DNA of 64,000 nt from Escherichia coli. Its GTDB lineage: Bacteria; Pseudomonadota; Gammaproteobacteria; Enterobacterales; Enterobacteriaceae. A program made the translations under genes and the position numbers. Below, piece by piece: positions 5,924 through 42,679 of the stretch. The notes under the pieces were generated by a model. It had not been told where the DNA came from. It saw nothing but the letters and a program-made list of their open reading frames with translations, and made no database searches. The stretch lies in the NCBI RefSeq assembly GCF_044647545.1, contig NZ_CP172818.1. The stretch is one strand, 5' to 3'. Each line of letters starts with the position of its first letter. Position 1 is the first letter of the stretch.

Positions 5924-6849
5924 TAATAAACTGAACGCCCTAATTGTTTCGTCAATTGTTCAAGGACAGCAATGCCCGCAAGCGAGTTACCGGCATCATC
6001 CAGTTCCGGGCTCCAGACTGCGATGGCCATTTCATGCGGAACAATCGCCACAATACCGCCACCAACGCCAGATTTTGCCGGTAGTCCCACCCGCCAGGCA
6101 AACTCCCCCGCGTTCTGGTACATACCACTGGTCGCCATCAGCGCGTTAATTTGCCGCGCCTGCATTGGCGTCACCACAGGTTCATCAATATGAATAGCTT
6201 TACCCTGATTAGCCAGAAAGACAAACGTCCGGGCCAGCTCTACACAGCTCATTTTCAGAGCGCAGTAATGAAAGTAGTTTTGCAGAACGGTTGTCACATC
6301 ATGATGGAAATTGCCAAACGACTTCATCAGCCAGGCGATAGCCGCATTTCGCGCGGAGTGTTCAAATTCGGAACGCGCTACCACCGTATCGTAGGAAATA
6401 TCAGACACACCGCTTAAGCCGCGCACGACTTCCAGCATACGTTGCCGAGGAGCGCTTAATCGCCCTTGCAACATATCGCAGACCACCAGCGCACCGGCAT
6501 TAATAAACGGATTACGCGGAATACCCTGCTCCATTTCCAGTTGCACTAAAGAATTGAACGGTGATCCAGACGGATCTTTGCCGACGCGTTGCCAGATTTC
6601 CTCTTCGGAGTAATGACGCATGGCGACAACGAGACTCAGCACTTTGGAAATAGACTGAATGGAAAAACGTTCTTGCGCGTCTCCGGCCTGAAAAAGCTGT
6701 CCGTCAACGGTACAGATAGCAATCCCCAATCGGGAACCGTCTACCGTAGCCAGCGCCGGAATATAATCCGCGACTTTACCCTGACCAATGAGCGGCCGCA
6801 CTTGCCGCAAGATGTTTTCTAAAATTGCATTATCCATGGCGACTGCCAC
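5923..6849 (-). CDS. glsB: glutaminase 2, 308 aa
   Basis: 308-aa ORF with serine-dependent glutaminase family features (QSISKV motif); recognised. Confidence 0.9.
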
Positions 6850-16245: not shown

Positions 16246-16341
16246 TGCTGGGTAATATGAATGTTTTTATGGCCGTACTGGGAATAATTTTATTTTCTGG
16301 GTTTCTGGCCGCGTATTTCAGCCACAAATGGGATGACTAAT
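16246..16341 (+). CDS. mgtS: small membrane protein MgtS (YneM), 31 aa
   Basis: atgctgggtaatatgaatgtt... encodes MLGNMNVFMAVLGIILFSGFLAAYFSHKWDD; terminator hairpin follows. Confidence 0.8.
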
Positions 16342-16367
16342 GAACGGAGATAATCCCTCACCTAACC

Positions 16368-16407
16368 GGCCCCTTGTTACAGTTGTGTACAAGGGGCCTG
16401 ATTTTTA
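16368..16407 (+). terminator. rho-independent terminator of mgtS
   Basis: ggccccttgt...acaaggggcc stem followed by tgattttta. Confidence 0.6.
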
Positions 16408-16415
16408 TGACGGCG

Positions 16416-16513
16416 AAAAAAAACCGCCAGTAAACCGGCGGTGAATGCTTGCATGGATAGATTTGTGTTTTGCTTTTACGCTAACAGGCATTTTCCTGCA
16501 CTGATAACGGATC
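16416..16513 (-). ncRNA. mgrR: MgrR sRNA (PhoP-dependent, Hfq-binding); coordinates approximate
   Basis: Minus-strand PhoP box, candidate -10 TACTGT about 22 bp downstream, and a terminator (ccgccggtttactggcgg + T8) about 98 nt from the predicted start. Confidence 0.6.
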
Positions 16514-16546
16514 GTTGACACAGTAGCATCAGTTTTCTCAATGAAT

Positions 16547-16564
16547 GTTAAACGGAGCTTAAAC
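16547..16564 (-). promoter_or_regulatory. PhoP box (GTTTAA-N5-GTTTAA direct repeat) upstream of mgrR
   Basis: Minus strand reads gtttaagctccgtttaac. Confidence 0.6.
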
Positions 16565-18459: not shown

Positions 18460-20505
18460 TTATACGTTCAAGCCACGATGTTGCAGCATCGGCATAATCT
18501 GAGGTGCCTTACCGCGCCATTGTCGATACAGGCGTTCCAGATCCTCGCTGTTACCTCTGGAAAGGATCGCCTCGCGAAAACGCAGCCCATTTTCACGCGT
18601 TAATCCGCCCTGCTCAACAAACCACTGATAACCATCATCGGCCAACATTTGCGTCCACAGATAAGCGTAATAACCCGCGGCATATCCGCCACCAAAAATA
18701 TGGGCGAAATAACTGCTGCGATAGCGTGGCGGTATAGCGGGAAGATCCATATTTTCCGCCACCAGCGCCCGCAATTCGAAATCATCGACATCCTGCATTG
18801 CTTCGTTTTCTTCCAGGCAATGCCAGCGCATATCGAGAAGTGCGGCGCTAAGCAGTTCGCTCATCTCATACCCTTTATTGAACAGGCTGGCATTACGCAT
18901 TTTCTGTTGCAGTTCGTCAGGCATTGCTGCCCCGCTCTGATAATGCCGGGCGTAGCGAGCGAATACCTGCGGATGCGTTGCCCAGTGTTCGTTGATTTGC
19001 GACGGAAATTCGACAAAATCACGCGGCGTGTTGGTGCCGGAAAGCGTAGCATAACGCTGGCAGGCAAACAGGCCGTGCAGCGTATGACCAAATTCATGGA
19101 ATAAGGTTATTACATCATCCCAGAGTAACAACGCAGGCTCCCCAGCAGCGGGTTTCTGATAATTGCAGACGTTATAAATTACCGGATGCGTTTCATTAAG
19201 CGTTGATTGCTCAACAAAATTGCCCATCCATGCACCGCCGCTTTTTGAATCACGGGCGAAGAAATCACCGTAAAATAACGCCAGCCCCACGCCATTATGA
19301 TCAAAAATTTCCCACACCCGAACGTCAGGATGGTAGACAGGAATATCAAAACGTTCGACAAACTTAATACCGAAGAGCTGATTCGCAGTCCAGAATACAC
19401 CTTCATTCAACACCGTGTTTAATTCAAAATATGGCTTGAGCTGCGATTCATCGAGATCGAATTTCTCACGTCTTACCTGCTCGGCATAAAATGCCCAGTC
19501 CCACGGCTGCGCGCTAAACCCGCCCTGCTGCTTATCGATAACCGCCTGTATGGAGGCTAATTCATCGCTCGCACGTTGACGCGCCGCTGGAACAATTTCC
19601 CGCATAAAGTTGAGCGCTGCTTCTGGCGTTTTTGCCATCTGATCGGCGATTTTCCATGCGGCATAATGAGGAAAACCAAGCAGTTTCGCCTGCTGCGCGC
19701 GGATCTCCACCAGACGTTGAATGATAGCGCGGGTATCATTGGCATCATTTTTTTCCGCTCGCATCCAGCCCGCAGTAAACAGTTTTTCACGCGTCGCGCG
19801 ATCGCACAGTTCAGCAAGCGCTGGTTGTTGGGTGGTATTCAGCAGCGGAATCAGCCATTTGTTATACAGACCTTTCTCGCGAGCCGCCTCTGCCGCCAGC
19901 GCAATCTCTTGCTCACTCATTCCTGCCAGCTGCGCGATATCGTTCACAACCAGACCGCCGGATTTATTTGCTGCCAGTAACCGCTGGTTAAACTGGCTGG
20001 TCAGGGTCGCAGCTTCTGTATTCAGTACTTTTAATTTTGCTTTATCAGCTTGCTTAAGTTTGGCTCCGGCAAGGACAAAACGTTGATGAATCACCTCCAC
20101 CAGGCGGATGGATTCACTATCAAGCCCCAGGGATTCACGGCGCTGCCAGACAGCATCTACCCGCGCGAATAATTCCCCGTTCAGATAGATATCATTCGCA
20201 AGTTCCGCCAGTTCAGCGGAAAACTGTTCATCAAGACGCTGTAATTCATCATTGGTATGCGCCGCAGTCATCGCAAAAAAGACGCTGGTAACGCGGGTAA
20301 GTAATTCTCCGCTTTGTTCCAGTGCCAGAATAGTATTGTTGAAATCAGGTGTTTGCGGGTTAAGCGCGATGGCAGCAATTTCTGCCCGCTTTTGCTGCAT
20401 TCCCTCATCGAATGCCGGGCGATAGTGATGATTGGCAATTTGATCAAAATGGGGAGCCAGATACGGCAGTGTGCTTTGCACAAGGAAAGGATTCATTGTT
20501 GTCAT
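18460..20505 (-). CDS. dcp: peptidyl-dipeptidase Dcp, 681 aa
   Basis: M3 zinc-metallopeptidase motif HEFGH; start taken at MTTMNPFLVQ... Confidence 0.95.
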   Translation of the reverse strand: MTTMNPFLVQSTLPYLAPHFDQIANHHYRPAFDEGMQQKRAEIAAIALNPQTPDFNNTILALEQSGELLTRVTSVFFAMTAAHTNDELQRLDEQFSAELAELANDIYLNGELFARVDAVWQRRESLGLDSESIRLVEVIHQRFVLAGAKLKQADKAKLKVLNTEAATLTSQFNQRLLAANKSGGLVVNDIAQLAGMSEQEIALAAEAAREKGLYNKWLIPLLNTTQQPALAELCDRATREKLFTAGWMRAEKNDANDTRAIIQRLVEIRAQQAKLLGFPHYAAWKIADQMAKTPEAALNFMREIVPAARQRASDELASIQAVIDKQQGGFSAQPWDWAFYAEQVRREKFDLDESQLKPYFELNTVLNEGVFWTANQLFGIKFVERFDIPVYHPDVRVWEIFDHNGVGLALFYGDFFARDSKSGGAWMGNFVEQSTLNETHPVIYNVCNYQKPAAGEPALLLWDDVITLFHEFGHTLHGLFACQRYATLSGTNTPRDFVEFPSQINEHWATHPQVFARYARHYQSGAAMPDELQQKMRNASLFNKGYEMSELLSAALLDMRWHCLEENEAMQDVDDFELRALVAENMDLPAIPPRYRSSYFAHIFGGGYAAGYYAYLWTQMLADDGYQWFVEQGGLTRENGLRFREAILSRGNSEDLERLYRQWRGKAPQIMPMLQHRGLNV

Positions 20506-20641
20506 TTTCTTCTCCTGAACGCGAGGTGTTCCATAGCGTAGGCTTACTGATAACGGAGTGCAATCTTGCAAACCAGTATTACCCGCTCTTAAGCATCACG
20601 TGCTATGTTATTGACACACAAAAGCGTTGAGGAACAGTGAG

Positions 20642-21388
20642 ATGATCGTTTTAGTAACTGGAGCAACGGCAGGTTTTGGTGAATGCATTACTCGTCGTTT
20701 TATTCAACAAGGGCATAAAGTTATCGCCACTGGCCGTCGCCAGGAGCGGTTGCAGGAGTTAAAAGACGAACTGGGAGATAATCTGTATATCGCCCAACTG
20801 GACGTTCGCAACCGCGCCGCTATTGAAGAGATGCTGGCATCGCTTCCTGCCGAGTGGTGCAATATTGATATCCTGGTAAATAATGCCGGTCTGGCGTTGG
20901 GCATGGAGCCTGCGCATAAAGCCAGCGTTGAAGACTGGGAAACGATGATTGATACCAACAACAAAGGCCTGGTATATATGACGCGCGCCGTCTTACCGGG
21001 TATGGTTGAACGTAATCATGGTCATATTATTAACATTGGCTCAACGGCAGGCAGCTGGCCGTATGCCGGTGGTAACGTTTACGGTGCGACGAAAGCGTTT
21101 GTTCGTCAGTTTAGCCTGAATCTGCGTACGGACCTGCATGGTACGGCGGTGCGCGTCACCGACATCGAACCGGGTCTGGTGGGTGGCACCGAGTTTTCCA
21201 ATGTCCGCTTTAAAGGCGATGACGGTAAAGCGGAAAAAACCTATCAAAATACCGTTGCATTGACGCCAGAAGATGTCAGCGAAGCCGTCTGGTGGGTGTC
21301 AACGCTGCCTGCTCACGTCAATATCAATACCCTGGAAATGATGCCGGTTACCCAAAGCTATGCCGGACTGAATGTCCACCGTCAGTAA
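20642..21388 (+). CDS. ydfG: NADP-dependent short-chain dehydrogenase YdfG, 248 aa
   Basis: SDR glycine motif TGATAGFG, catalytic YxxxK region. Confidence 0.9.
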   Translation: MIVLVTGATAGFGECITRRFIQQGHKVIATGRRQERLQELKDELGDNLYIAQLDVRNRAAIEEMLASLPAEWCNIDILVNNAGLALGMEPAHKASVEDWETMIDTNNKGLVYMTRAVLPGMVERNHGHIINIGSTAGSWPYAGGNVYGATKAFVRQFSLNLRTDLHGTAVRVTDIEPGLVGGTEFSNVRFKGDDGKAEKTYQNTVALTPEDVSEAVWWVSTLPAHVNINTLEMMPVTQSYAGLNVHRQ

Positions 21389-21476
21389 TTTTTATACCCG
21401 GCGTAACTGCCGGGTTATTGCTTGTCACAAAAAAGTGGTAGACTCATGCAGTTAACTCACTCACAAGCAAGAACGA

Positions 21477-22163
21477 ATGACCGTCGAAACGCAACTTAAT
21501 CCCACACAGCCTGTCAATCAGCAGATTTATCGTATTCTTCGTCGCGACATTGTCCATTGCCTGATTGCTCCAGGCACACCGTTGTCGGAAAAAGAAGTTT
21601 CTGTTCGTTTCAATGTGTCACGCCAGCCGGTTCGTGAAGCCTTTATTAAACTGGCGGAAAACGGCCTGATTCAAATTCGTCCGCAGCGTGGCAGCTACGT
21701 CAACAAAATTTCCATGGCCCAGGTGCGCAACGGCAGTTTTATCCGTCAGGCCATTGAGTGCGCGGTGGCGCGTCGGGCGGCGAGCATGATTACCGAAAGC
21801 CAGTGCTACCAACTGGAACAAAATCTTCACCAGCAACGCATTGCCATTGAGCGCAAGCAACTGGATGATTTTTTTGAACTTGATGACAACTTCCATCAAC
21901 TCCTGACCCAGATTGCCGACTGTCAACTGGCGTGGGAAACCATTGAGAACCTGAAAGCGACCGTTGATCGCGTGCGCTATATGAGTTTCGACCACGTTTC
22001 TCCACCAGAAATGCTGTTACGCCAGCATCTTGAGATTTTCTCTGCCCTGCAAAAACGTGATGGCGATGCGGTAGAACGTGCAATGACGCAACATTTGCAG
22101 GAAATCAGCGAATCTGTGCGCCAGATCCGCCAGGAAAACAGCGACTGGTTTAGCGAAGAGTAA
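21477..22163 (+). CDS. ydfH: GntR/FadR-family regulator YdfH (RspR), 228 aa
   Basis: N-terminal GntR HTH plus FCD domain. Confidence 0.85.
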
Positions 22164-22339
22164 TTCATTTCCTCTCATCCCATCCGGGGTGAGAGTCTTT
22201 TCCCCCGACTTATGGCTCATGCATGCATCAAAAAAGATGTGAGCTTGATCAAAAACAAAAAATATTTCACTCGACAGGAGTATTTATATTGCGCCCGTTA
22301 CGTGGGCTTCGACTGTAAATCAGAAAGGAGAAAACACCT

Positions 22340-22543
22340 ATGACGACCTACGATCGTAACCGTAACGCAATCACCACTGGCAGCCGTGTTATGGTTAGCG
22401 GCACCGGTCACACTGGCAAGATCCTGTCGATTGATACTGAAGGTCTGACCGCTGAGCAAATCCGCCGCGGAAAAACCGTAGTTGTTGAAGGTTGTGAAGA
22501 GAAACTGGCACCTCTGGACCTGATTCGTCTCGGCATGAACTAA
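22340..22543 (+). CDS. ydfZ: YdfZ, small protein, 67 aa
   Basis: 67-aa ORF with strong terminator immediately downstream. Confidence 0.85.
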
Positions 22544-22550
22544 GCGTGTG

Positions 22551-22580
22551 AATGCCGCCGATGGCGGCATTGCTTTTTTT
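22551..22580 (+). terminator. rho-independent terminator after ydfZ
   Basis: aatgccgccgatggcggcatt hairpin followed by T7. Confidence 0.7.
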
Positions 22581-24039
22581 ACTTCACGGAATATTTCGCC
22601 ACGGTCGCTTTCGCACCATGCGCTAATAAAGACAAGTACGCTTCCGTCACTTTTGCAGTAAACAAGCTATTGTCTGGCAAATCATCACCAAAGATCGCCT
22701 TAATCGCCAGCAATGACTGGACGCGCGCTTTCCCTTCGGCACTACTTTGTACAGCCTTCTGAATAACAGGTAACAGTGGGTCACTGATTTCTATCGGATT
22801 TCCCTGTTCATCAACACCACCGACATAACGCATCCAACCCGCGACGCCTAGCGCCAGCAGATCGAACTTGCTGTCATGCGCCAGATGCCAGCGAACAGAA
22901 TCCAACATCCGCTGTGGCAATTTCTGGCTGCCATCCATCGCAATCTGCCAGGTTCGATGACGTAGCGCCGGGTTGCTATAGCGTTCAATTAATCGGTTAG
23001 CGTAATCTTGCAAATCAACGCCCTGCACTTTCAACGTCGGCGCTTGTTCATGCAACATCAAGGCATACGCTGCATGACGATAATGTTCATCTTCCATGCA
23101 GTCATTAATGTGCTGATATCCGGCAAGATAACCCAGATACGCCAGGAATGAATGACTGCCGTTGAGCATGCGCAACTTCATCTCTTCATAAGGCAGCACA
23201 TCACTAACCAGTTCGGCTCCCGCTTTTTCCCATTCCGGACGTCCGGCAACAAAGTTATCTTCTATTACCCACTGGCGGAAAGGTTCACAGGCAACGCCAG
23301 CAGGATCGCGCACACCGGTAAGTTGTTCGATTTTCGCCAGCGTATCCTCTGTCACTGCGGGCACAATACGGTCCACCATTGTTGATGGGAAAGTCACGTT
23401 TTCTTCGATCCATTGTGCCAGTTTTACATCAACAGCTTGCGCGTAGGAAGTGACAACGTCACGCATAACATGACCGTTTTCTGGCATGTTGTCACATGAC
23501 ATGACGGTAAATGCGGGAAGTCCTGCCGCTTTACGGCGAGCCAGCGCCTCGACAATCACCCCTATTGCAGTTTTCGGCTGGTGGGGATTTTGTACATCGG
23601 CAACGACCATCGGGTGATCGGGCATTAACTGTCCGGTCGCCGGAGAGTGGAAATACCCTTTTTCGGTGATTGTCAGAGAGACAATCGCGATTTGCGGTTC
23701 ACACATCGCAGCCAACACGGTTTCTAAGCCATCAATCTGTACGTGCAAGGCTTTTTTAACGACGCCAACGACGCGAGCCGTCCACGCATCGGCCGACATT
23801 TCCGCAACGGTATAAAGATTATCTTGCTGTTGTAAATCGGCAATTTGCTGTTCGCCGCCGATTAAATTGACCTCATAATATCCCCAGTCACTGAAATGTT
23901 CCGTAGCAAGAATATCGGCATACACACCCTGATGCGCACGGTGAAATGCACCAAAGCCTAAATGAACAATTCTTGGGGCCAGGTTATTACGATCATAAAC
24001 AGGGAGCGTCGCTTTTGCTGATAACAAATTATTTCCCAT
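22579..24039 (-). CDS. ydfI: mannitol/mannonate dehydrogenase-family oxidoreductase YdfI, 486 aa
   Basis: 486-aa ORF, paralogous to UxaB/UxuB-type enzymes. Confidence 0.9.
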
Positions 24040-24128
24040 AACAATTCCTTAAATTTAAATATGGCAAGCTGCATGTTTTGTTATATGAATAAAAAATCCC
24101 CTCTCCGGTAAGAGAAGGGATGGAGGAT

Positions 24129-25412
24129 TTACAGACTTCTTGAAGGTTGCGCTGCTGTTACAACACGCGGTTGATCTTCCGCGGCATCTTCCAGTGCACT
24201 TAAATCACGGTCTTTCACTTCTGGCATTTTCAGCGCAGAGATTAAACCAATCACTGAATATGCCATGATCATAATGGCGATCGGATACCAGGATTCCGTC
24301 ATGGTGCAGAAAATACCCGCCAGGATAGGACCAAAACCGGAAGCGATAAGACCACCAATTTCTTTAGAAATAGCCATCCGGGTAAAGCGGTTTTTACAGC
24401 CGAACATTTCTGCCATGGTAATGTTTTCCAGAGCAAATAATCCCAGCACCGCACAGTTATGAATCACAATCAGTGCAACCATAATGGTGCTCGGGGCATA
24501 GCTTTTATCTACGATGATAGAAAGCATTGGCCACGCCAGCACAATCGCAGAGGTATTCATAATAATATACGGGATCCGGCGACCTATTTTATCGGATAAC
24601 CAACCAAGGAACGGAATGGTCATAAAGCCGAGAATCGAACTGATCATCAATGCATCTGTTGGAATTGCTTTGTTAAACAATAACGTCTGCACTAAATAGC
24701 CTGCAAGGAAAGTCTGAATTAAACCTGAGTTACCAGCCTGACCAAAACGCAGCCCTGTTGCCAGCCAGAAGGATTTGCTCTGGAACATGCTACCAGCAGG
24801 TGCAGGTTTTGCTGTCGGTTGATTGCTGTCGTTAACCTTCTCAAAGACCGGGCTTTCTTTCAGATTCATACGCAACCAGATAGCAAAGACCATCACGACA
24901 ACGCTCGCCAGGAACGGTATACGCCATCCCCACGCCAACAGTTCCTCTTTACTGAGAATGAAGAACATAAAGGCCCAGATTGCCGTTGCGCTCAAGGTTC
25001 CGCAGTTAGTCCCCATAGCAACAAATGAGGAGATAATTCCGCGCTTACCTTTTGGCGCATATTCCGCCAGCATCGTACCGGCACCGGAAATTTCCGCACC
25101 TGCACCCAATCCCTGAATAATACGCAGCGTCACCAGCAAGATGGGTGCAAAAACACCAATCTGTGCATAGGTCGGTAACACACCAATTAAGGTGGTACAG
25201 ATCCCCATCATGGTGATGGTAATAAAGAGTACTTTTTTACGCCCTATTCTGTCGCCCATTTTGCCGAAAATAAATGCTCCGACAATACGCGCCACATAAC
25301 CTGCACCGTAGGTTCCCATTGCCAGAATTAACGCCATTGCCGTTGATGATTCAGGAAAAAATATTTCATGAAACACTAACGCTGCGCCGAGCGAATATAA
25401 CTGGAAATCCAT
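24129..25412 (-). CDS. ydfJ: MFS transporter YdfJ, N-terminally truncated by prophage insertion (427-aa remainder)
   Basis: ORF starts at MDFQLYSLGAALVF, inside the first TM region; the missing N-terminus (MTIEKHERSTKDLVKAAVSGWLGTALEFMDF) lies at 46250-46342 on the far side of the prophage. Confidence 0.85.
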   Translation of the reverse strand: MDFQLYSLGAALVFHEIFFPESSTAMALILAMGTYGAGYVARIVGAFIFGKMGDRIGRKKVLFITITMMGICTTLIGVLPTYAQIGVFAPILLVTLRIIQGLGAGAEISGAGTMLAEYAPKGKRGIISSFVAMGTNCGTLSATAIWAFMFFILSKEELLAWGWRIPFLASVVVMVFAIWLRMNLKESPVFEKVNDSNQPTAKPAPAGSMFQSKSFWLATGLRFGQAGNSGLIQTFLAGYLVQTLLFNKAIPTDALMISSILGFMTIPFLGWLSDKIGRRIPYIIMNTSAIVLAWPMLSIIVDKSYAPSTIMVALIVIHNCAVLGLFALENITMAEMFGCKNRFTRMAISKEIGGLIASGFGPILAGIFCTMTESWYPIAIMIMAYSVIGLISALKMPEVKDRDLSALEDAAEDQPRVVTAAQPSRSL

Positions 25413-25416
25413 AATT
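25403..25416. repeat. attL core copy
   Basis: gaaatccataattc; 11 identical bases plus TTC shared with the right-end copy. Confidence 0.6.
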
Positions 25417-26198
25417 CACAGGTGTTTTTTCCCATCCTGTGGTTTCCTTGGCGTTTTCTAGGTTTTTTCAGATAGTTGCATTTTTTAAAAAGCATCCTAA
25501 GTTCGATCTCAGTGTCTATCTGGGGCCTATTTCTGTCCCATATATGCCCCAAAAAAAACTCCCCAACAGATAAGTAGTTTTTTCATGGATTTATGCGTAA
25601 AATCAAGAACGGCTGGAAATCATTCAATACTCACACTATCGAAAAATTTACCAGCCAACCGCAGCACGTTCTTGCATAAGGCGTGTCTGCGGTTTTTCAA
25701 CTATTCAGATACATCACTCCCATCACATTCATTCCTCCGCATCAAAGGCATATAGGCTATATCACCTTGATATTTTTCTTTTTCAGATAAAAACTGTTAT
25801 CTATGTATACTTTTAAACCCAATCCGTGTAGAGTCTCTGCATAAGATAGTTTACAGTTGCCGCTTCAGCTTGCGCCATAAACCGCCTGATTTTTGCTGCC
25901 ACCTGTTAGCATTCCTGTATACCTGAAACGACAATGTTTATCTACGAACTTTAAGAACACCCAAGATAAAAATTGTCAACTATATCATATATAACACATT
26001 ACTAATTCGAGGCTATATGAACAGCATACTGATAATCACATCTCTCCTTATCATATTCAGCATTTTTAGTCATGCCCTAATAAAATTAGGGATTGGCATA
26101 TCCAATAACCCAGACAAAACCGATGTATAAGTCAACATATCCTGAATCAGACATACAATATCGCAATGAAAATCAATAATATTTTAAGGAATATCTTC

Positions 26199-26432
26199 AT
26201 GAAATCAAAAGACACCCTAAAGTGGTTCCCTGCGCAGCTTCCTGAAGTAAGAATTATCCTAGGGGATGCTGTAGTGGAAGTAGCAAAACAGGGAAGACCT
26301 ATCAATACCAGAACATTGCTTGATTACATTGAAGGAAACATAAAGAAAAAATCATGGCTGGATAACAAAGAATTATTACAAACAGCGATATCAGTTCTTA
26401 AAGACAACCAAAATTTAAATGGTAAAATGTAA
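26199..26432 (+). CDS. ydfK: Qin prophage protein YdfK, 77 aa
   Basis: MKSKDTLKWFPAQLPEVRIILGDAVVEVAKQGRP... Confidence 0.8.
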   Translation: MKSKDTLKWFPAQLPEVRIILGDAVVEVAKQGRPINTRTLLDYIEGNIKKKSWLDNKELLQTAISVLKDNQNLNGKM

Positions 26433-26748
26433 TATAATAAACTTACTTTTTTATCATTTTTCCACTTTAACAACATTTTGCTCCACTTTTCCACGACCAA
26501 ACAACTTGAAATCTGGTTAAAATAACACGCAACACTATTCTTCTTCCTTGAGTCCGCCCGGAACTCGAAAAACAAACCGAGTTAAAGCCTTTTTTCACAA
26601 AATCGATTTTGGGTCTCACCAAAATTACGGGGTTGCATACGCATTCGTTTATTTTCGAACGTGTACATACAAATATGCACAAAAATAATCATAATTATTT
26701 TCTGAGATGCATTATGATATGAACACCAATTTCGTATAGAGTCTCACT

Positions 26749-27339
26749 ATGTCTCGAATTTTTGCTTACTGTCGGATATCAACGCTGGATCAGACCACCG
26801 AAAATCAACGCCGGGAAATCGAAAGTGCAGGTTTTAAAATCAAACCTCAGCAAATAATCGAAGAACACATTAGCGGCTCAGCAGCAACCAGTGAGCGTCC
26901 TGGTTTTAACCGGTTGCTTGCTCGCCTGAAATGTGGTGATCAATTGATTGTGACAAAACTGGATCGCCTTGGTTGTAATGCAATGGATATCAGGAAAACA
27001 GTGGAACAACTGACCGAAACAGGTATCAGAGTGCATTGCTTAGCATTGGGTGGCATTGACCTGACCAGTCCAACAGGAAAAATGATGATGCAAGTAATTT
27101 CAGCAGTCGCTGAATTTGAACGAGACCTTTTACTTGAACGCACTCATTCCGGGATAGTAAGAGCCCGCGGCGCAGGGAAACGTTTTGGTCGACCACCTGT
27201 GTTAAATGAAGAACAGAAACAGGTGGTATTCGAACGAATTAAGTCAGGTGTAAGTATAAGTGCCATTGCCCGGGAATTCAAAACCTCGCGGCAAACCATT
27301 TTAAGAGCCAAAGCAAAACTTCAGACACCTGACATATAA
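26749..27339 (+). CDS. pinQ: serine DNA invertase PinQ (Hin/Gin/Pin family), 196 aa
   Basis: N-terminal resolvase catalytic region ([17 protein letters not shown]) and C-terminal HTH. Confidence 0.95.
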
Positions 27340-27436
27340 AAAATAATCTCGGTGTGAGATGCTTTACGTCTTCCAAGCCCCCTTCCTTGCCGTAAATGGA
27401 AAGATACATCTAATTATAGAATTTATATGTTTTACC

Positions 27437-28011
27437 CTACGGCAGTGCTGGCCATTCAATATCCTGTGCAGTTGACGTATCAACACGGTTCAGCAATACC
27501 CGATACTTTTTCCATGCTTCCAGCAACGGGGTTTCTTCCTCCGTTGCAATTTCCAGATCTGCAGCATCCTGAAGCGGCGCAATATGCTCACTGGCTACCT
27601 GCATCAGGTTGTTTTTTTTTCTTCCGCTTCCCGTATCCGAAACAGTTTTTCTGCTTCCTCATCATTCACCCAGGATACGCCGTCCCACTTCTGATACTCC
27701 CCTGCTGGCGACAACCAGGTGACATTCTCTGGTAGCGGTCCGAGTTCAGAAATAAACAATGCGTCCCCCGACGCCACGTCATAGACCGTTTTACCACGAT
27801 GGTCTTCAACAATATTCCACGATTCATTTTCACTGTTAAAAACTGCCACAAAGCCAGCAGGAATTTCCGGTGGGGCGATATCTGTAGAATTAGCTGGCAG
27901 CCCTGTATGAGGTGGAATATATGCGTCACCTTCACCAATAAACTCATTAGTTCCGGCCAGCAGGTTATAAATTTTTACGGTACGTGATTGTTCACTCATT
28001 CTGAATGCCAT
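27437..28011 (-). pseudogene. tfaQ: tail fibre assembly protein TfaQ, frameshifted at a 9-nt homopolymer (27612-27620)
   Basis: N-terminal frame stops after ...EAEEKKTT at 27604; the C-terminal part ([22 protein letters not shown]...DIEWPALP*) continues in another frame to a stop at 27437-27439. Confidence 0.7.
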
Positions 28012-28934
28012 TATGCAAGCCTCACAATATAATTAAATGCGATGTTTTTAACGGTGTTTTCCGCGTTACCAGCAGCGTTAACGGTGATGGTGTGTCCATG
28101 TGAACCAATCTTAACAGAGTGCGTATGAGCGCCAATACCAACAGTGTGTGCATGTGCCCCAGCACTTGTAGCGGTACCTGATACTGAGTGGGTATGTGCG
28201 CCAGAAGAAGGCACAGTTCCATTCCCCACCACCGTGCCACTTGATGAACCATCCAGCCAGTCGAAATTCATACCGCCACTGTTTGGTCTCCTTAATGGAA
28301 CGGTATGAGTATGTGCGCCAGCACTATTTGCAGTACCAGATACATTGTGGGTATGTGCACCTGTGTTATTCGTTGATTTAGTACCGTAATCAAACGACGA
28401 TGTGGTTTTCGTACCCAAATCCGTACTGGATGCGCTGGCACTGTGGGTGTGCGATTTAATGCCATCCTGTTCCTGAGACAATACGGCCCGACCACTGGCG
28501 GGTTTGCCCTTGATTGTCCAGCCGCGCATATCTGGAATAACACCAGAAGGATAGGCAATAGCCAGTTTCGGATATGCTGCCTTATCAAACGTCTGCCCCT
28601 GCATGATTGCATAACCTGCAGGTGGCGTATCTGATGGCCACGGGATTGGTGCACCGACTGGATAAAACTCTGCAGGAGGATGAGCCGAGGTGTAAAGCTG
28701 CGCCCACGGCGACCAGTTTGCGTCGGTCGTATCCCGTCGTGAACGAATAAATGCCGGAGCATGAGCACCGCTTGTACCACTCCAGCCGATGAGTAACTCA
28801 CCTTCGCCAACGGCTGTCATCCCTTTCAGGTGAATGATATTTCCATACGCTGTTGGATATCCGTTGTTATACACCTCGTATAACTCAAGACCTGCTGCCC
28901 CCTGCGTATTGTCTGTCAGCGCGGTTATATTCAC
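28011..28934 (-). CDS. stfQ: side tail fibre protein fragment StfQ (YdfN); Gly/His-rich repeats
   Basis: 307-aa ORF with repeated [11 protein letters not shown]-type units; stop overlaps tfaQ start (TAATG); the 5' end overlaps nohQ so the true start is uncertain. Confidence 0.65.
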
Positions 28935-29454
28935 TCAGCAACCCCGGTATCAGTTCATCCAGCGCGGCTGCTTTGTTCATGGCTTTGATAATATCCCGTT
29001 TCAGGAAATCAACATGTCGGTTTTCCAGTTCCGGAAAACGCCGCTGCACCGACAGGGGGAGCCCGTCGAGAATACTGGCAATTTCACCTGCGATCCGCGA
29101 CAACACGAAAGTACAGAATGCGGTTTCCACCACTTCAGCGGAGTCTCTGGCATTCTTCAGTTCCTGTGCGTCGGCCTGCGCACGCGTAAGTCGATGGCGT
29201 TCGTACTCAATAGTTCCTGGCTGGAGATCTGCCTCGCTGGCCTGCCGCAGTTCTTCAACCTCCCGGCGCAGCTTTTCGTTCTCAATTTCAGCATCCCTTT
29301 CGGCATACCATTTTATGACGGCGGCAGAGTCATAAAGCACCTCATTACCCTTGCCACCGCCTCGCAGAACGGGCATTCCCTGTTCCTGCCAGTTCTGAAT
29401 GGTACGGATACTCGCACCGAAAATGTCAGCCAGCTGCTTTTTGTTGACTTCCAT
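28885..29454 (-). CDS. nohQ: terminase small-subunit (Nu1) homologue NohQ, 189 aa with altered C-terminus
   Basis: [46 protein letters not shown]... as in lambda Nu1; C-terminal residues diverge, consistent with a deletion junction. Confidence 0.85.
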
Positions 29455-29630
29455 TGTTCATTCCACGGACAAAAACAGAGAAAGGAAACGACAGAGGCCA
29501 AAAAGCTCGCTTTCAGCACCTGTCGTTTCCTTTCTTTCAGAGGGTATTTTAAATAAAAACATTAAGTTATGACGAAGAAGAACGGAAACGCCTTAAACCG
29601 GAAATTTTTCATAAATAGCGAAAACCCGCG

Positions 29631-29642
29631 AGGTCGCCGCCC
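29631..29642. other. cosN cohesive-end site, within a lambda-like cos region (about 29455-29700)
   Basis: aggtcgccgccc is the reverse complement of lambda cosN GGGCGGCGACCT; flanks match my recollection of the lambda left end (cosB) and right end (cosQ side). Confidence 0.75.
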
Positions 29643-29841
29643 CGTAACCTGTCGGATCGCCGGAAAGGACCCGCAAAATGATAATAATTATCATCTGCAT
29701 GTCACAACGTGCATCTACGCCATCAAACCACGTCAAATAATCAATTATGACGCAGGTATCATATTAATTGATCTGCATCAACTTAACGTAAAAACAACTT
29801 CAGACAATACAAATCAGCGACACTAAATACGGGACAACCTC

Positions 29842-30075
29842 ATGTCAACGAAGAACAGAACCCGCAGAACAACAATCCGCAACATCCGCTTTCCTAACCA
29901 AATGATTGAACAAATTAACATCGCTCTTGATCAAAAAGGGTCCGGGAATTTCTCAGCCTGGGTCATTGAAGCCTGCCGCCGGAGACTGTGCTCAGAAAAA
30001 AGAGTTTCTCCTGAAGCAAACAAAGAAAAGAGTGACATTACTGAATTGCTCAGAAAACAGATCAGACCAGATTGA
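29842..30075 (+). CDS. ynfO: Qin prophage protein YnfO, 77 aa
   Basis: 77-aa ORF MSTKNRTRRTTIRNIRFPNQMIEQ... Confidence 0.75.
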   Translation: MSTKNRTRRTTIRNIRFPNQMIEQINIALDQKGSGNFSAWVIEACRRRLCSEKRVSPEANKEKSDITELLRKQIRPD

Positions 30076-30131
30076 AGCAATTTAGATAATCGTGCAGACT
30101 ACGCCCCTCATATCACATGGAAGGTACCACA

Positions 30132-30542
30132 ATGGCTCAGGTTGCCATTTTTAAACAAATATTCGATAAAGTGCGAAATAATTTAAACTATCACTGGTTT
30201 TATTCTGAACTAAAACGTCACAATGTCTCACATTACATTTACTATTTAGCTACAGAGAATATTCATCTTGTTCTTGAAAACGATAATACGGTTTTAATAA
30301 AAGGACAGGGTAAGGTTGTAAATGTAAGATTTTCAAAAAATAAATGCCTTATAGAAGCCACCTTAAAAGGATTCAAATCAGGAGAGTTATCATTTTACGA
30401 ATACAGGAAAAATCTTGCTACAGCAGGGGTTTTCAGATGGATTACAAATATCCACGAAAACAAAAGGTATTACTATACCTTTGATAATTCATTACTCTTT
30501 ACTGAGAACATTCAGAACACTACACAAATATTTCCGCACTAA
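30132..30542 (+). CDS. ydfO: Qin prophage protein YdfO, 136 aa
   Basis: Start at [13 protein letters not shown]... Confidence 0.8.
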
Positions 30543-30731
30543 ATCATAACGTCCGGTTTCTCTCACTCCTGAGCCGGACTGCATTGGTTTAATAAAAACC
30601 ATCGACAATCGAGATTTATATCTATTCGGTAATGTTTAAATATAACAAAACCCCGTAAAAACGAGGTTTATGGGTAATTTGTATTGTTGAATAGCATCTG
30701 ATGAGAAATTGATGCTAATACTATAAACATG

Positions 30732-30905
30732 CTAGATTAAATCAATCTTGATATCATAGCTTTCAAGACCAGTCATTTTTTCCCGTGCAGTAAACTGGAT
30801 ACTGGTAACTTCTTTCCCGGTCTTTTTCTTAAGCTCAATGATTTTTTTTGTTATATATTCAGAAATATCTGCTTCTGTTTTTGTTTTTAACTCTTCAATG
30901 TTCAT
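30732..30905 (-). CDS. gnsB: GnsB (GnsA/GnsB family), 57 aa
   Basis: MNIEELKTKTEADISEYITKKIIELKKKTGKEVTSIQFTAREKMTGLESYDIKIDLI. Confidence 0.85.
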   Translation of the reverse strand: MNIEELKTKTEADISEYITKKIIELKKKTGKEVTSIQFTAREKMTGLESYDIKIDLI

Positions 30906-31077
30906 CATTTCCTCTTTTAGTCTGTTATGACTGTCCTGGTACACAGTAGTGTCAATTATATGGAGCAAACGTATAAAAGATAAGATGAAACATCGCAATA
31001 ATCAACATACGACGGTCTAAATTTCACACAAACAGATAAAGATGATTATCATTTATTATCAATGCATTAGAATCAAA

Positions 31078-31308
31078 TCAATTCAAGAGTCTCATTGCTG
31101 CTTCCAGAATTTCTTCTGAAGTTACATGTCGATCCGCTGCTACATAAATGACTTTATGATCTCCGGTCAGAGATGGAAACCCTGCAGCCATTACAGTGAG
31201 GTGTGTTGTTTCGCCATTTGGATATTCACGCATGATGGTGTTAACTCCGGTCATCACTGGCACTACCATTGCTGGTTCAGAGTTAAAAAAAACTATTATT
31301 TTTTTCAT
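31078..31308 (-). CDS. ynfN: Qin prophage small protein YnfN; start uncertain
   Basis: 89-aa ORF; several in-frame Met candidates (MKKIIVFF..., MREYPNG...). Confidence 0.5.
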   Translation of the reverse strand: MKKIIVFFNSEPAMVVPVMTGVNTIMREYPNGETTHLTVMAAGFPSLTGDHKVIYVAADRHVTSEEILEAAMRLLN

Positions 31309-31579
31309 AATGTTACCGTAATATGTGAGTATCCATCGACTAGACACTAAGCAAAAAAGCTCCCGAAGGAGCCTTCATTTTCACTTTCTTAAATCTAACG
31401 ACAGATGGCTAACATTTAAGTATTGTGAAATATTATCAAATGTAATCATCATTGATTTACAAAAGATACATTTTGCCCCGAAAGGATTTCTGTCAGAAAC
31501 ATCAAAAGATGATGTTCTATACTGAGAACCATGGCAACACGGGCATCTAAAGTGAATATGGTTTGTAATATTTTCTACC

Positions 31580-31792
31580 TCAAAGTGCCACTACATGAAC
31601 AGCTGCAGGGCCTTTAGGTCCGTTCTCAATACCAAATTCGACTTCCTGATTCTCAGTTAACGTTTTGAAATCGTTGCTCTGAATAGCTGAGAAATGCACA
31701 AACACATCTTTGCTACCATCTTTCGGCGTGATGAAACCAAAACCTTTTTCAGGGTTAAACCATTTCACTAAACCAGTCATTTTGTTAGACAT
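31580..31792 (-). CDS. cspI: cold-shock protein CspI, 70 aa
   Basis: [38 protein letters not shown]...; long AT-rich upstream leader. Confidence 0.9.
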
Positions 31793-32156
31793 CATTATTA
31801 CCTTTTGAAGAAGTTAGCCCTTGGGCAGAATGGTCCGAAAAAAAAATATCAGAGAGAAAAACCAACAAGGAAATCTCAAGAGGTACAAATAATAAAATTA
31901 TAACAATGACTGCTTCAGATAATTTTGTAACAAACCAGAACACCATTAACGCATGATTAACCAACCATAGCAAGGATTACTTTTGTAAAGAAAAACACAC
32001 GAATGAAACAATAGCTTTATTTATTAATAAAACGTGTCATTCTGTCTAATGACCTTTTATCTTACCCTTAAGATTTCAAGGATTTTGACTCATGGAAGAG
32101 TCCTTTTTATTTAAATTTCACATTCAGCGCTAAAAATAATCCGATTTAATATTAAT

Positions 32157-33184: not shown

Positions 33185-33492
33185 AGATATTTATGATGAG
33201 GACGCTCGTGCTTATTGGCAGGATTTTCAATCTTAAAGGAGTACTGATGCTGCAGATAAGACTCAACTTTTTCTGACAATTTTTCTGCTACTTCCAGGAA
33301 GACTTGCCGGACGCTCATTCTGGCTGCTGCCTCATAAAACTCCAGCGCAGCTCCTTCAACACGGTCCATGGCGACATCCAGGCCAAAAATTTCACCGTCA
33401 AAGCGTTCTTTGTCCTGTAAGGCTACAGTTACCGTAACTTTATTCTCAAAATTACGGACTCCTTTCACAACCAGTTCATAGTATTGAGTCAT
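33181..33492 (-). CDS. ydfR: Qin prophage protein YdfR, 103 aa
   Basis: 103-aa ORF between holin and endolysin. Confidence 0.75.
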
Positions 33493-33496
33493 TGGA

Positions 33497-33712
33497 TTAC
33501 TCTCCTCTCGCAGCCTTACGCCTGTCTTCTTTAATCTTGAAATAAAGATTTGTCAGGTACGTCAGCAGGCCAAATACCAGGCTACCCAGCACACCTATTG
33601 CTGCCCACTGTGAGGGCGTGACTTTATCGAGCAGCTGTAAAAACCAGTAGCCAGCACTGCCTGCGGAGGTGCCGTAGGCAATGCCTGTTGAAATTTTGTC
33701 CATGGATTTCAT
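33497..33712 (-). CDS. essQ: holin EssQ, 71 aa
   Basis: [31 protein letters not shown]... with TM segments and charged C-terminus. Confidence 0.8.
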
Positions 33713-33932
33713 AGCCTCACCTCCGCACGGAACGGATGGTGCAATATGTTTGAAAAGATCGGAGTCTACGGGGTAGTTTTGACAGCACACGTTGTTCTCA
33801 ACGGCGCTAAAAAAACATACACATTAAAAATGTGGGTAATTATTTTGAAAGAAAGTCATATATAAAATAATAATACGAGAAATGTTTTCATATTTAGTGT
33901 ACTGTATACGGCCATTTATACAGGAAAAGCCT

Positions 33933-34103
33933 ATGTCAGAACGTAAAAACTCAAAATCACGCCGTAATTATCTCGTTAAATGTTCCTGCCCAAACTGCAC
34001 CCAAGAGTCAGAACACAGTTTTTCAAGAGTACAAAAAGGTGCCCTTTTGATCTGCCCTCATTGCAACAAAGTATTCCAGACAAATCTTAAAGCTGTAGCC
34101 TGA
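33933..34103 (+). CDS. 56-aa zinc-ribbon small protein (two CxxC pairs); possibly the ribosome-profiling-identified small protein of this region
   Basis: AGGAAAA RBS 6 nt upstream of ATG; MSERKNSKSRRNYLVKCSCPNCTQESEHSFSRVQKGALLICPHCNKVFQTNLKAVA; hairpin downstream. Confidence 0.45.
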   Translation: MSERKNSKSRRNYLVKCSCPNCTQESEHSFSRVQKGALLICPHCNKVFQTNLKAVA

Positions 34104-34466
34104 TTGATTTTATTAGTAACAAGTATTTTTTATATTTTAATAATATATTTAAAGCAGATAATAAAAAACCCGCCTGAGCGGGTTTGAGATTGTGGTGCTT
34201 TTTGTGGGAGTCATCCACTTACGCACTTTGTTTTGCCATGCCAGCAGTTAGCTTCTGCTGTAAAACTATTCATGCAGCAAACCTGCACTTCACCACAATG
34301 GTTAGCATACTTTTCCTGATTAAGATTTTGCCAAATATGCTAGCCATTGTTTCATGTATTGGACCTCCTTACTTTTTATTAAAGAGATCCAATATTCACT
34401 ACTCTGTCCGTATCTCTACTCAGGCATCAGCCTTCTTCGTTATCGTATACAGACGAGCGATGAATT

Positions 34467-34682
34467 TTAATCAGTAATGATGACATTTGCTGCTGCAGGA
34501 CCTTTAGCACCACTCTCTATAGAGAAGGTAACCTTTTGACCTTCAAATAAGGTTCGATAATTATCATTCTGAATCGCAGAAAAATGCACAAACACATCTT
34601 TACTACCATCAACAGGAGAAATAAAGCCGAAACCTTTATCAGCGTTAAACCATTTTACTAAACCAGTCATTTTATTTGACAT
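34467..34682 (-). CDS. cspB: cold-shock protein CspB, 71 aa
   Basis: [38 protein letters not shown]... Confidence 0.9.
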
Positions 34683-34982
34683 TCTACATTCCTTAACTTG
34701 AGCCTTTCGGCATAAATGGTTTGCATAACAGAAACGACTTCGTACTTAATTGGAGAGACTCAAAGAAGGAATAAGTGAATAACACCTGAAATGAGAACTG
34801 CTTTAGTAAACTACTTCGTATATCGTCTGTTCTTCAAACCGACGCAATCATTAACGCATAGTTGAACATATGAAGCAATGTTTATTTTAGACATCCAGCC
34901 ATCTTCAACCCCATCAAAAAACTATAGCTTTCTTCAGGAACGTGTGTATAGTGCGCCAAGTTATCAGTATTAAGGAATTTTT

Positions 34983-35195
34983 TTGTCCCGTAAAATGACA
35001 GGAATTGTCAAAACCTTTGACGGCAAAAGCGGCAAGGGTCTTATCACCCCATCCGATGGTCGTATCGATGTCCAGCTTCATGTTTCAGCGCTCAATCTCC
35101 GCGATGCAGAAGAAATTACCACCGGATTACGCGTGGAATTTTGCCGGATAAATGGTCTGCGTGGCCCTTCAGCTGCCAATGTTTACCTTTCATGA
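34983..35195 (+). CDS. cspF: cold-shock-like protein CspF, 70 aa (TTG start as reported by the ORF track)
   Basis: [37 protein letters not shown]...; divergent from cspB. Confidence 0.85.
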
Positions 35196-35616
35196 GCTAT
35201 ATTAAAGCTTTAATTTCAGGCCCCATCGGATCACACATGGAGAGTTTTTATGAATAACCCCGTCTGTCTTGATGACTGGTTGATTGGCTTTAAAAGCTTA
35301 TGCTGTACTTTGGCCGTAATAGCTCTGCTAATAATATAATAAGCAGACTCATTGTGTTTAGGGACATTGTACTGGAAGAAAACATTTTAAACATCAGGCA
35401 AATAACCAAGTCACCAGCTAAATAATAAGTTAACAGACATGAGTCCCGGGATGAGATTCAACATTACCATTGCCCCATTTAAAGCACAAAACCCGCTCAT
35501 CAGCGGGTTTTCTACTTTTTCTTAACGTCGGGTATACAAAGCCCATCGTTAGGAGAATCCTAACCAAATTTTTTGAAAAATGCAAGAATCATGTCGCCAT
35601 CTTCGGCGAAAATCAT

Positions 35617-42621: not shown

Positions 42622-42679
42622 TTTCTGGTGACGTTTGGCGGTATCAGTTTTACTCCGTGACTGCTCTGCCGCCCTTTTT
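42622..42679 (+). ncRNA. dicF: DicF sRNA (53 nt) plus its terminator U-tail
   Basis: tttctggtgacgtttggcggtatcagttttactccgtgactgctctgccgccc followed by ttttt. Confidence 0.8.

Follow-up and report, generated by a model that had tools for sequence, protein, structure and literature searches.

The closest described counterpart of the gene analysed here is ynfU (b4776) of Escherichia coli K-12, a small gene of the Qin prophage that entered the literature through a study by Weaver et al., reportedly published in mBio in 2019. That study detected ynfU in ribosome profiles taken from initiation complexes that had been stalled (Ribo-RET), confirmed it with a chromosomal SPA tag and immunoblot, ranked the level of its product highest among the new small proteins described there, reported that YnfU is abundant at 37 °C and expressed from the prophage state, and remarked on 'a pair of zinc knuckles', for which modelling gave a moderate match to PA0128 (bioRxiv 10.1101/511675). 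RiboReport gives ynfU a TIS peak and full Ribo-seq coverage, and PIRT-seq recovered the gene genetically, so that its translation is independently confirmed. The remaining literature mentions of ynfU repeat the zinc motif or merely list the gene; we found no functional study of YnfU, no zinc measurement in the literature mentioning it, and nothing on expression of ynfU under cold or DNA damage.

Outside its own family, YnfU is comparable to four groups of small zinc proteins. The N-terminal zinc ribbon of PhnA/YjdM (PF08274; P. aeruginosa PA0128, PDB 2akl) likewise has two CPxC-type knuckles at a similar spacing. The DNL-type zinc finger (Tim15/Zim17/Hep1, PF05180; PDB 2e2z) gives the best PDB sequence match to YnfU and, beyond the Cys residues, has S-x-H, S-[KR], KG and L-I-x-CPxC positions in common with it, although DNL zinc fingers, unlike YnfU, are eukaryotic organellar proteins. 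Small ribosome-bound zinc ribbons (archaeal eL42/L44e, L37ae and the Methanosarcina ribosomal Zn-finger protein 9o17_AZ) are, like YnfU, about 50–60 aa long, basic and of the Cys4 type. Finally, YmcF-like proteins (PF23641) resemble YnfU in being small CxxC...CxxC proteins whose gene adjoins a csp gene, here in the same prophage.

The stretch of E. coli DNA that we analysed, hereafter the window, is 64 kb (64,000 nucleotides) long. A preliminary description, made from the letters alone, had singled out a 56-codon ORF at 33933–34103 as perhaps a recently recognised small protein. This was well judged: the ORF is ynfU, a real protein-coding gene of a Qin-type lambdoid prophage, found in 2019 by ribosome profiling. 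All 171 nt on the plus strand, from ATG 33933 to TGA 34101–34103 (56 codons plus TGA), are identical to the K-12 allele. In a megablast of 33600–34500 against 5,426 complete E. coli genomes, the RefSeq feature over the ORF is 'ynfU: putative zinc-binding protein YnfU' (56 aa), between the holin gene (essQ/essD) and cspB, which is its place in K-12 also. The product, MSERKNSKSRRNYLVKCSCPNCTQESEHSFSRVQKGALLICPHCNKVFQTNLKAVA, matches Pfam PF23499 (YnfU) with 107.3 bits (cut-off 27) along profile positions 1–49 of 49, and NCBIfam NF038384 with 79.4 bits (cut-off 36). As the same description had it, the protein is basic (pI 9.6; 10 K/R vs 3 D/E). Its Cys residues are at 17, 19, 22, 41 and 44, with knuckles C19-P-N-C22 and C41-P-H-C44, and between them lie S26-E-H-S-F30 and R32-V-Q-K-G36. 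For the locus as a whole, we hold with good confidence that ynfU is real and translated; its product is very probably a Cys4 zinc ribbon, and the gene would form a moron-like unit with a putative promoter of its own and a shared hairpin.

The ORF is short and its AT-rich flanks hold many small chance ORFs, as would be expected if it were itself a chance open frame in intergenic DNA and not a gene. We give that explanation practically no weight. Among the 797 stop-to-stop frames of at least 40 aa in the 64-kb window, the ynfU frame was the sole carrier of CPxC-x(10-30)-CPxC, and 200 first-order Markov randomisations gave a mean of 0.005 double-CPxC ORFs per window. In the ynfU family mean pN was 0.165 against a mean pS of 0.76 (12 loci), and variable sites by codon position numbered 27/16/42 of 49 among the homologues, values that point to strong purifying selection. 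Together with the matches to curated HMMs and with published detection of translation by three independent experimental approaches, the randomisation test and the pN/pS comparison led us to reject a chance ORF.

Initiation at ATG 33933 follows from published initiation profiling, tagging and reporter-transposon data, all obtained on the identical K-12 allele. Ribosome profiling had been proposed as a check on the ORF, and the Ribo-RET data of Weaver et al. and the RiboReport TIS peak supply the translation signal, with PIRT-seq in agreement. The strong start signals claimed for the ORF can be read directly: a Shine-Dalgarno sequence, AGGA, stands at 33922–33925 (+), 7 nt before the ATG, and CAGGARA is kept at this position in 14 of 16 ynfU loci. 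The maximal ORF at the locus, which is the one in the ORF list, is longer (33882–34103; 73 aa from ATG 33882), several homologue entries in the databases carry in-frame N-terminal extensions, and some gene callers annotate the longer start for homologues. That the real product is this 73-aa protein is nevertheless very improbable. Protein conservation starts exactly at M1-S-x-R-K, in distant members the sequence before the ATG is interrupted by a stop or lies in another frame, and the extension would cover both the Shine-Dalgarno sequence and the conserved block described below. We therefore prefer the 56-aa start, on the strength of its Shine-Dalgarno sequence, of conservation beginning at M1 and of the RefSeq annotation (56 aa), with published initiation-site profiling also backing it; the start at 33882 was rejected because its upstream frames are not conserved.

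That block, GTGTACTGT at 33897–33905 (+), includes a −10-like hexamer, TACTGT (33900–33905). When loci were aligned by start codon, G(T/G)GTATGGT or GTGTACTGT was found 33–36 nt before the ATG in all 16 (16/16), including distant members whose proteins are only about 35–40% identical and whose neighbours are unrelated. The consensus is GTGTAYNGT, and its hexamer, TAYNGT, keeps the T-A...T positions of the sigma-70 −10. Because the distance between block and ATG stays constant at 16 loci whose neighbours are unrelated, we infer that it is the −10 of a promoter belonging to ynfU itself, with transcription starting near 33912 and a leader of about 20 nt. Such conservation is unusual for a promoter element, and the block is probably a private −10. 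A consensus promoter scan picked another site, 33845–33874, which is not conserved. The block motif showed no enrichment elsewhere in the window, and we rejected it as a regulon motif for this reason. One near-copy, GTGTATAGT at 34944–34952 (+), is a single mismatch from the ynfU block and precedes the start codon of cspF by 30 nt, a spacing much like that at ynfU; as the window holds no more copies of the motif than chance would give, this could simply be one more −10 element.

The same region contains a 7-bp perfect inverted repeat, CTGTATA-N8-TATACAG (33902–33923, +), overlapping the −10-like hexamer and the first Shine-Dalgarno bases. It occurs only in the E. coli and 2H10 alleles. We rejected it as an operator or RNA thermosensor because it is not kept as a repeat in any other genus, and as a LexA box because LexA sites are CTGT-N8-ACAG whereas the spacing here is N14.

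The AF2 model of YnfU (mean pLDDT 73.7, about 80–85 over residues 11–50; no metal in the model) has strands at 14–18, 25–29, 38–40 and 47–49 and a helix at 30–35. Strands 14–18/25–29 and 38–40/47–49 flank the two CPxC turns, giving the two beta-hairpin knuckles, each with two Cys, of a zinc ribbon. C19/C22 and C41/C44 on these hairpins would hold one Zn2+ in a Cys4 site and so make a minimal zinc ribbon. From sequence pattern and model we strongly infer that YnfU is a Cys4 zinc ribbon; zinc binding itself is predicted from the Cys4 pattern alone. The preliminary description had written the motif as CxCPxC...CPxC. Its two CPxC pairs are conserved, but its first Cys, Cys17, is lost in distant members and is no zinc ligand by our reading.

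Every weak match of YnfU in sequence or structure searches was a zinc ribbon. Foldseek returned no significant structural neighbour for the AF2 model, the fold being that of a generic zinc ribbon. Its top matches, all non-significant (TM about 0.47, 33% identity over 36 columns), were the ribosome-bound eL42/L44e, L37ae and 9o17_AZ. Against PhnA/YjdM, YnfU scored 22.4 bits (cut-off 30.8), with a PDB profile E-value of 0.23 for PA0128, and 29 of 36 YnfU family members gave a sub-threshold PF08274 match; YnfU differs in having no PhnA C-terminal domain and in its SEHSF/RVQKG core, which is YnfU-specific. The DNL match (E 0.013; 13.5 bits, cut-off 27) extended to 8 of 36 members, and the family differs from DNL proteins in having no D-N-L after the second knuckle and a variable C-terminal segment; YnfU itself ends ~12 residues past the last Cys. 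All matches to the PhnA/YjdM, DNL, SprT, Elf1 and GpA-ATPase zinc-ribbon families fell below their cut-offs, and we rejected membership in each. The likeness to the YmcF-like CxxC protein encoded nearby is one of arrangement only, and homology between the two was rejected (hhalign probability 0.4%, E 0.14).

Of the 5,426 complete E. coli genomes, 1,648 carry ynfU, nearly always at 99% identity or more. Sequenced temperate phages also carry it (2H10, Tritos, HannyBb, PhiR42_1 and PhiR63_1), with divergent copies in Klebsiella phage ST13-OXA48phi12.4 and Escherichia phage PHB10. A word-indexed search found 49 relatives, all in Enterobacterales; the genera are Escherichia, Klebsiella, Enterobacter, Kosakonia, Lelliottia, Kluyvera, Salmonella, Citrobacter, Franconibacter and Superficieibacter. 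An exhaustive HMM search of 1.84 billion cluster representatives placed the family at 37 clusters at 50% identity. Its proteins stand alone at about 52–60 aa; there was no real domain fusion among the 37 family representatives, the long matches being over-called ORFs or unrelated repeats. In public databases YnfU homologues are frequently misannotated: some ORFs run on too far, through the terminator and to as much as 186 aa, and misleading names such as 'aspartate carbamoyltransferase regulatory subunit' and 'Permease, cytosine/purine...' are found in the same set (P0002, P0007, P0010, P0050, P0057).

In a 36-sequence alignment covering ~10 genera, P20, C22, S26, E27, H28, S29, K35, P42 and C44 are invariant, and C17, C19, C41, F30, R32, Q34 and G36 are at least 90% conserved. 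The knuckles of YnfU lie 18 residues apart with the SEHSF-x-RVQKG core between them, a pattern kept in distant members, which retain CPxC-x3-S-x-HS-x2-[RK]-[VI]...L-[IL]-CPxC-x2-[LY]-F with Cys17 replaced. It is this replacement that points to C19, C22, C41 and C44 as the ligands, to the exclusion of Cys17. The Cys pairs, whose conservation in homologous prophages the preliminary description had made a condition of its reading, are conserved there and beyond.

Downstream of ynfU, its convergent neighbour cspB (34467–34682, −; ORF and RefSeq annotation) shares with it an intergenic hairpin. The preliminary description had placed a possible bidirectional terminator at 34154–34176; the hairpin is real but lies about 10 nt away, at 34166–34185. 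It has a GC-rich 8-bp stem, 34166–34173 and 34178–34185 (AAACCCGC and GCGGGTTT; 5 GC pairs), around a CTGA (CUGA) loop, with an A6 run at 34163–34168. Its energy is −12.8 to −15.3 kcal/mol (z = −3.3 to −3.5 vs shuffles), and it stands 62 nt past the ynfU stop and 281 nt past the cspB stop. The claim of bidirectionality stood for one side better than for the other. On the minus (cspB) strand it folds at −12.8 kcal/mol (z −3.5), the tail, TTTTTTATTAT, is T-rich, a terminator scan calls the hairpin, and its sequence is that of a canonical intrinsic terminator. On the plus (ynfU) strand the tail, TTTGAGATT, has 4–5 T in 9, the scan made no call, and the hairpin reads as a marginal, weaker terminator. 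The 2H10 allele has TTTAATATT as its plus-strand tail. Most ynfU homologues have a GC-rich hairpin 30–190 nt downstream, with two-sided T-runs at three loci (L006, L015 and L020). Since the late operon (Q, cspB, holin) is on the minus strand, the hairpin would chiefly stop cspB transcription before the lysis genes and stop ynfU transcription secondarily; the lysis genes would probably be shielded by it from transcription arriving from cspB.

The rest of the ynfU–cspB spacer yielded several side observations. A segment at ~34190–34310, on the cspB 3' side (minus), is partly conserved in Qin, the Superficieibacter prophage and phage PHB10, and has small hairpins (TGCAG/CTGCA and AGCAG/CTGCT); part of the spacer is found also at about 91 E. 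coli plasmid places. In some copies the minus strand has a short ORF, MNSFTAEANCWHGKTKCVSG, which Superficieibacter does not conserve. For hairpin and spacer, Rfam gave only a sub-threshold Trp_leader match, due to the terminator. We rejected a structured RNA in the cspB 3' spacer for want of an Rfam match and because the RNAalifold covariation term was +0.82, which is no support; in that alignment the Lelliottia row (L010, 4166–4460) lies outside the true Lelliottia spacer, 6166–6460, and is to be disregarded.

The window carries a Qin-type prophage with the K-12 gene order: nohA, ynfO, ydfO, gnsB, ynfN, ynfR, ymcF-like, cspI, rzpQ, rrrQ, ydfR, holin, ynfU, cspB, cspF, quuQ. The gene ynfU itself is the same as in K-12 Qin, whereas the surrounding prophage is a mosaic. 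The search for known small proteins of K-12 had been suggested as if the strain were close to it, which is right for 33732–35300, where ynfU, cspB and cspF equal K-12 exactly, and does not extend to the holin side. All 42 differences from K-12 within 33200–35300 fall in 33317–33731, mostly in the holin gene (33497–33712, −). Among the 5,426 complete E. coli genomes, none matched the 900-bp region above 98.4% or the holin allele (33490–33800) above 91.6%; the flank at 20000–32000 is about 97% identical to the best genomes. The contrast between 33317–33731 and 33732–35300 suggests that an abrupt recombination junction lies a short way 5' of ynfU. We detected no tRNA genes in the window. Against Rfam, the features scoring above the gathering threshold were cspA-type thermoregulators in the leaders of cspB (cspA thermoregulator, 34451–34843, −) and cspI (31534–31951, −), besides the Hfq-binding sRNA STnc560 (16334–16547, −), IS009 (27471–27668, −) and DicF (42623–42674, +).

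Cold-shock genes recur next to ynfU; in the window these are cspB and cspF (34467–35195). Adjoining cspI in the window is a YmcF-like 'cold shock small protein' gene (31381–31569, −; 62 aa, non-ATG start, CPCC...CIFC pair), which matches PF23641 and no other family, and the neighbouring small ORF ynfR has been reported in the literature to be cold-induced. Across 11 close-relative contexts, a cold-shock-domain gene lay within 410 bp of ynfU in seven, in three different arrangements; the csp-linked contexts are those of Qin/2H10, PHB10, Klebsiella, Lelliottia, Salmonella, Kluyvera and Superficieibacter. A YmcF-like gene is beside ynfU in Kluyvera and a YnaE gene in Lelliottia. With about nine csp genes per genome, we estimate the chance rate of an adjacent csp gene at well under 1%. 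No cold-shock gene was near ynfU in the four distant-member contexts (0/4), and since the linkage is absent from all four, co-mobility of a ynfU-cspB-cspF module can explain it.

The orientation of ynfU is opposite to that of the phage late operon (minus: Q, cspB, holin). With the conserved −10-like block and the downstream hairpin, and with expression known in K-12 from the literature, this would be in keeping with a moron. A moron-like placement, between Q and the holin gene in the same orientation, is found in phage 2H10 and a Superficieibacter prophage. ynfU appears to be transcribed autonomously, in the manner of a moron, from a putative promoter of its own and with a terminator that it shares: transcription would begin at its own conserved −10-like element (33900–33905), with a short leader, run against the late operon (Q -> cspB -> holin) and end at the hairpin 62 nt past the stop.

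YnfU might also be a phage moron or lysogenic-conversion factor with a phage-specific role (it could, for example, exclude superinfecting phages, counter host defences, or regulate lysis or late transcription), its chromosomal copies being prophage remnants. Consistent with such a role, ynfU is found in Qin-type prophages and in the inducible phages 2H10, Tritos, HannyBb and PhiR42_1, and its expression from the prophage state has been reported (Weaver et al., bioRxiv 10.1101/511675). It directly adjoins the lysis cassette in E. coli, Klebsiella phage ST13-OXA48phi12.4, Superficieibacter prophages and one further locus (L025). Set against this, in Klebsiella, Enterobacter, Lelliottia, Kluyvera, Franconibacter and the distant members ynfU has ordinary chromosomal neighbours with no phage genes nearby, and YnfU had no PADLOC match and no significant PHROG family, the last two results being our grounds for rejecting a defence or anti-defence assignment. 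The existence of chromosomal copies makes a phage-specific role the less likely reading, and we regard it as improbable.

Our own proposal for the protein is that the zinc ribbon would be a scaffold on which the invariant SEHSF-x-RVQKG surface and a basic tail at the N-terminus (R4, K5, R11) are displayed to a macromolecular partner; we do not expect YnfU to act as an enzyme. The likeliest partner would be RNA or the ribosome, and YnfU might share the stress context of the Csp RNA chaperones encoded next to it. This is speculative, and we advance it as a tentative lead, taken from the best (non-significant) neighbours of YnfU, which are ribosome-bound Zn proteins (L44e, the Methanosarcina ribosomal Zn-finger protein and L37ae), and from the csp linkage in 7/11 contexts. 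Many bacterial small proteins act by binding a larger protein, and YnfU may instead bind one (a chaperone, RNA polymerase, or a phage or host enzyme), its ribbon being a protein–protein module and not a nucleic-acid binder. Here the family matches are all below significance (zf-DNL 13.5 bits against a cut-off of 27, in 8/36 members), the DNL motif after the second knuckle is missing from the family, and no conserved neighbour points to a partner. We judge binding to a larger protein and binding to RNA or the ribosome about equally likely, neither above the level of a working possibility.

A more specific form of the RNA proposal would make YnfU a dedicated RNA- or ribosome-binding factor working with Csp-type chaperones in 'stress islands' (ynfU with cspB/cspF, YmcF-like and YnaE genes), its private promoter element, GTGTATGGT, kept across the whole family and so indicating dedicated regulation. 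We think this rather unlikely.

As a discovery the ORF matters little: ynfU, its translation and its zinc-knuckle motif are already known, having been published in 2019 and entered in RefSeq, Pfam and NCBIfam. New here are the conserved −10-like block, the csp linkage (7/11 close vs 0/4 distant contexts) and the family size of 37 clusters. The case is also a useful check that a real small protein under the customary ORF length limit can be picked out from raw sequence without tools. For experiments, the narrow enterobacterial family, the invariant SEHSF/RVQKG surface, the putative private −10 block and the partial cold-shock linkage offer starting points. If YnfU did work with Csp-type chaperones in stress islands, a function would thereby be assigned to a protein that ranks among the most abundant uncharacterised small proteins in E. 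coli.
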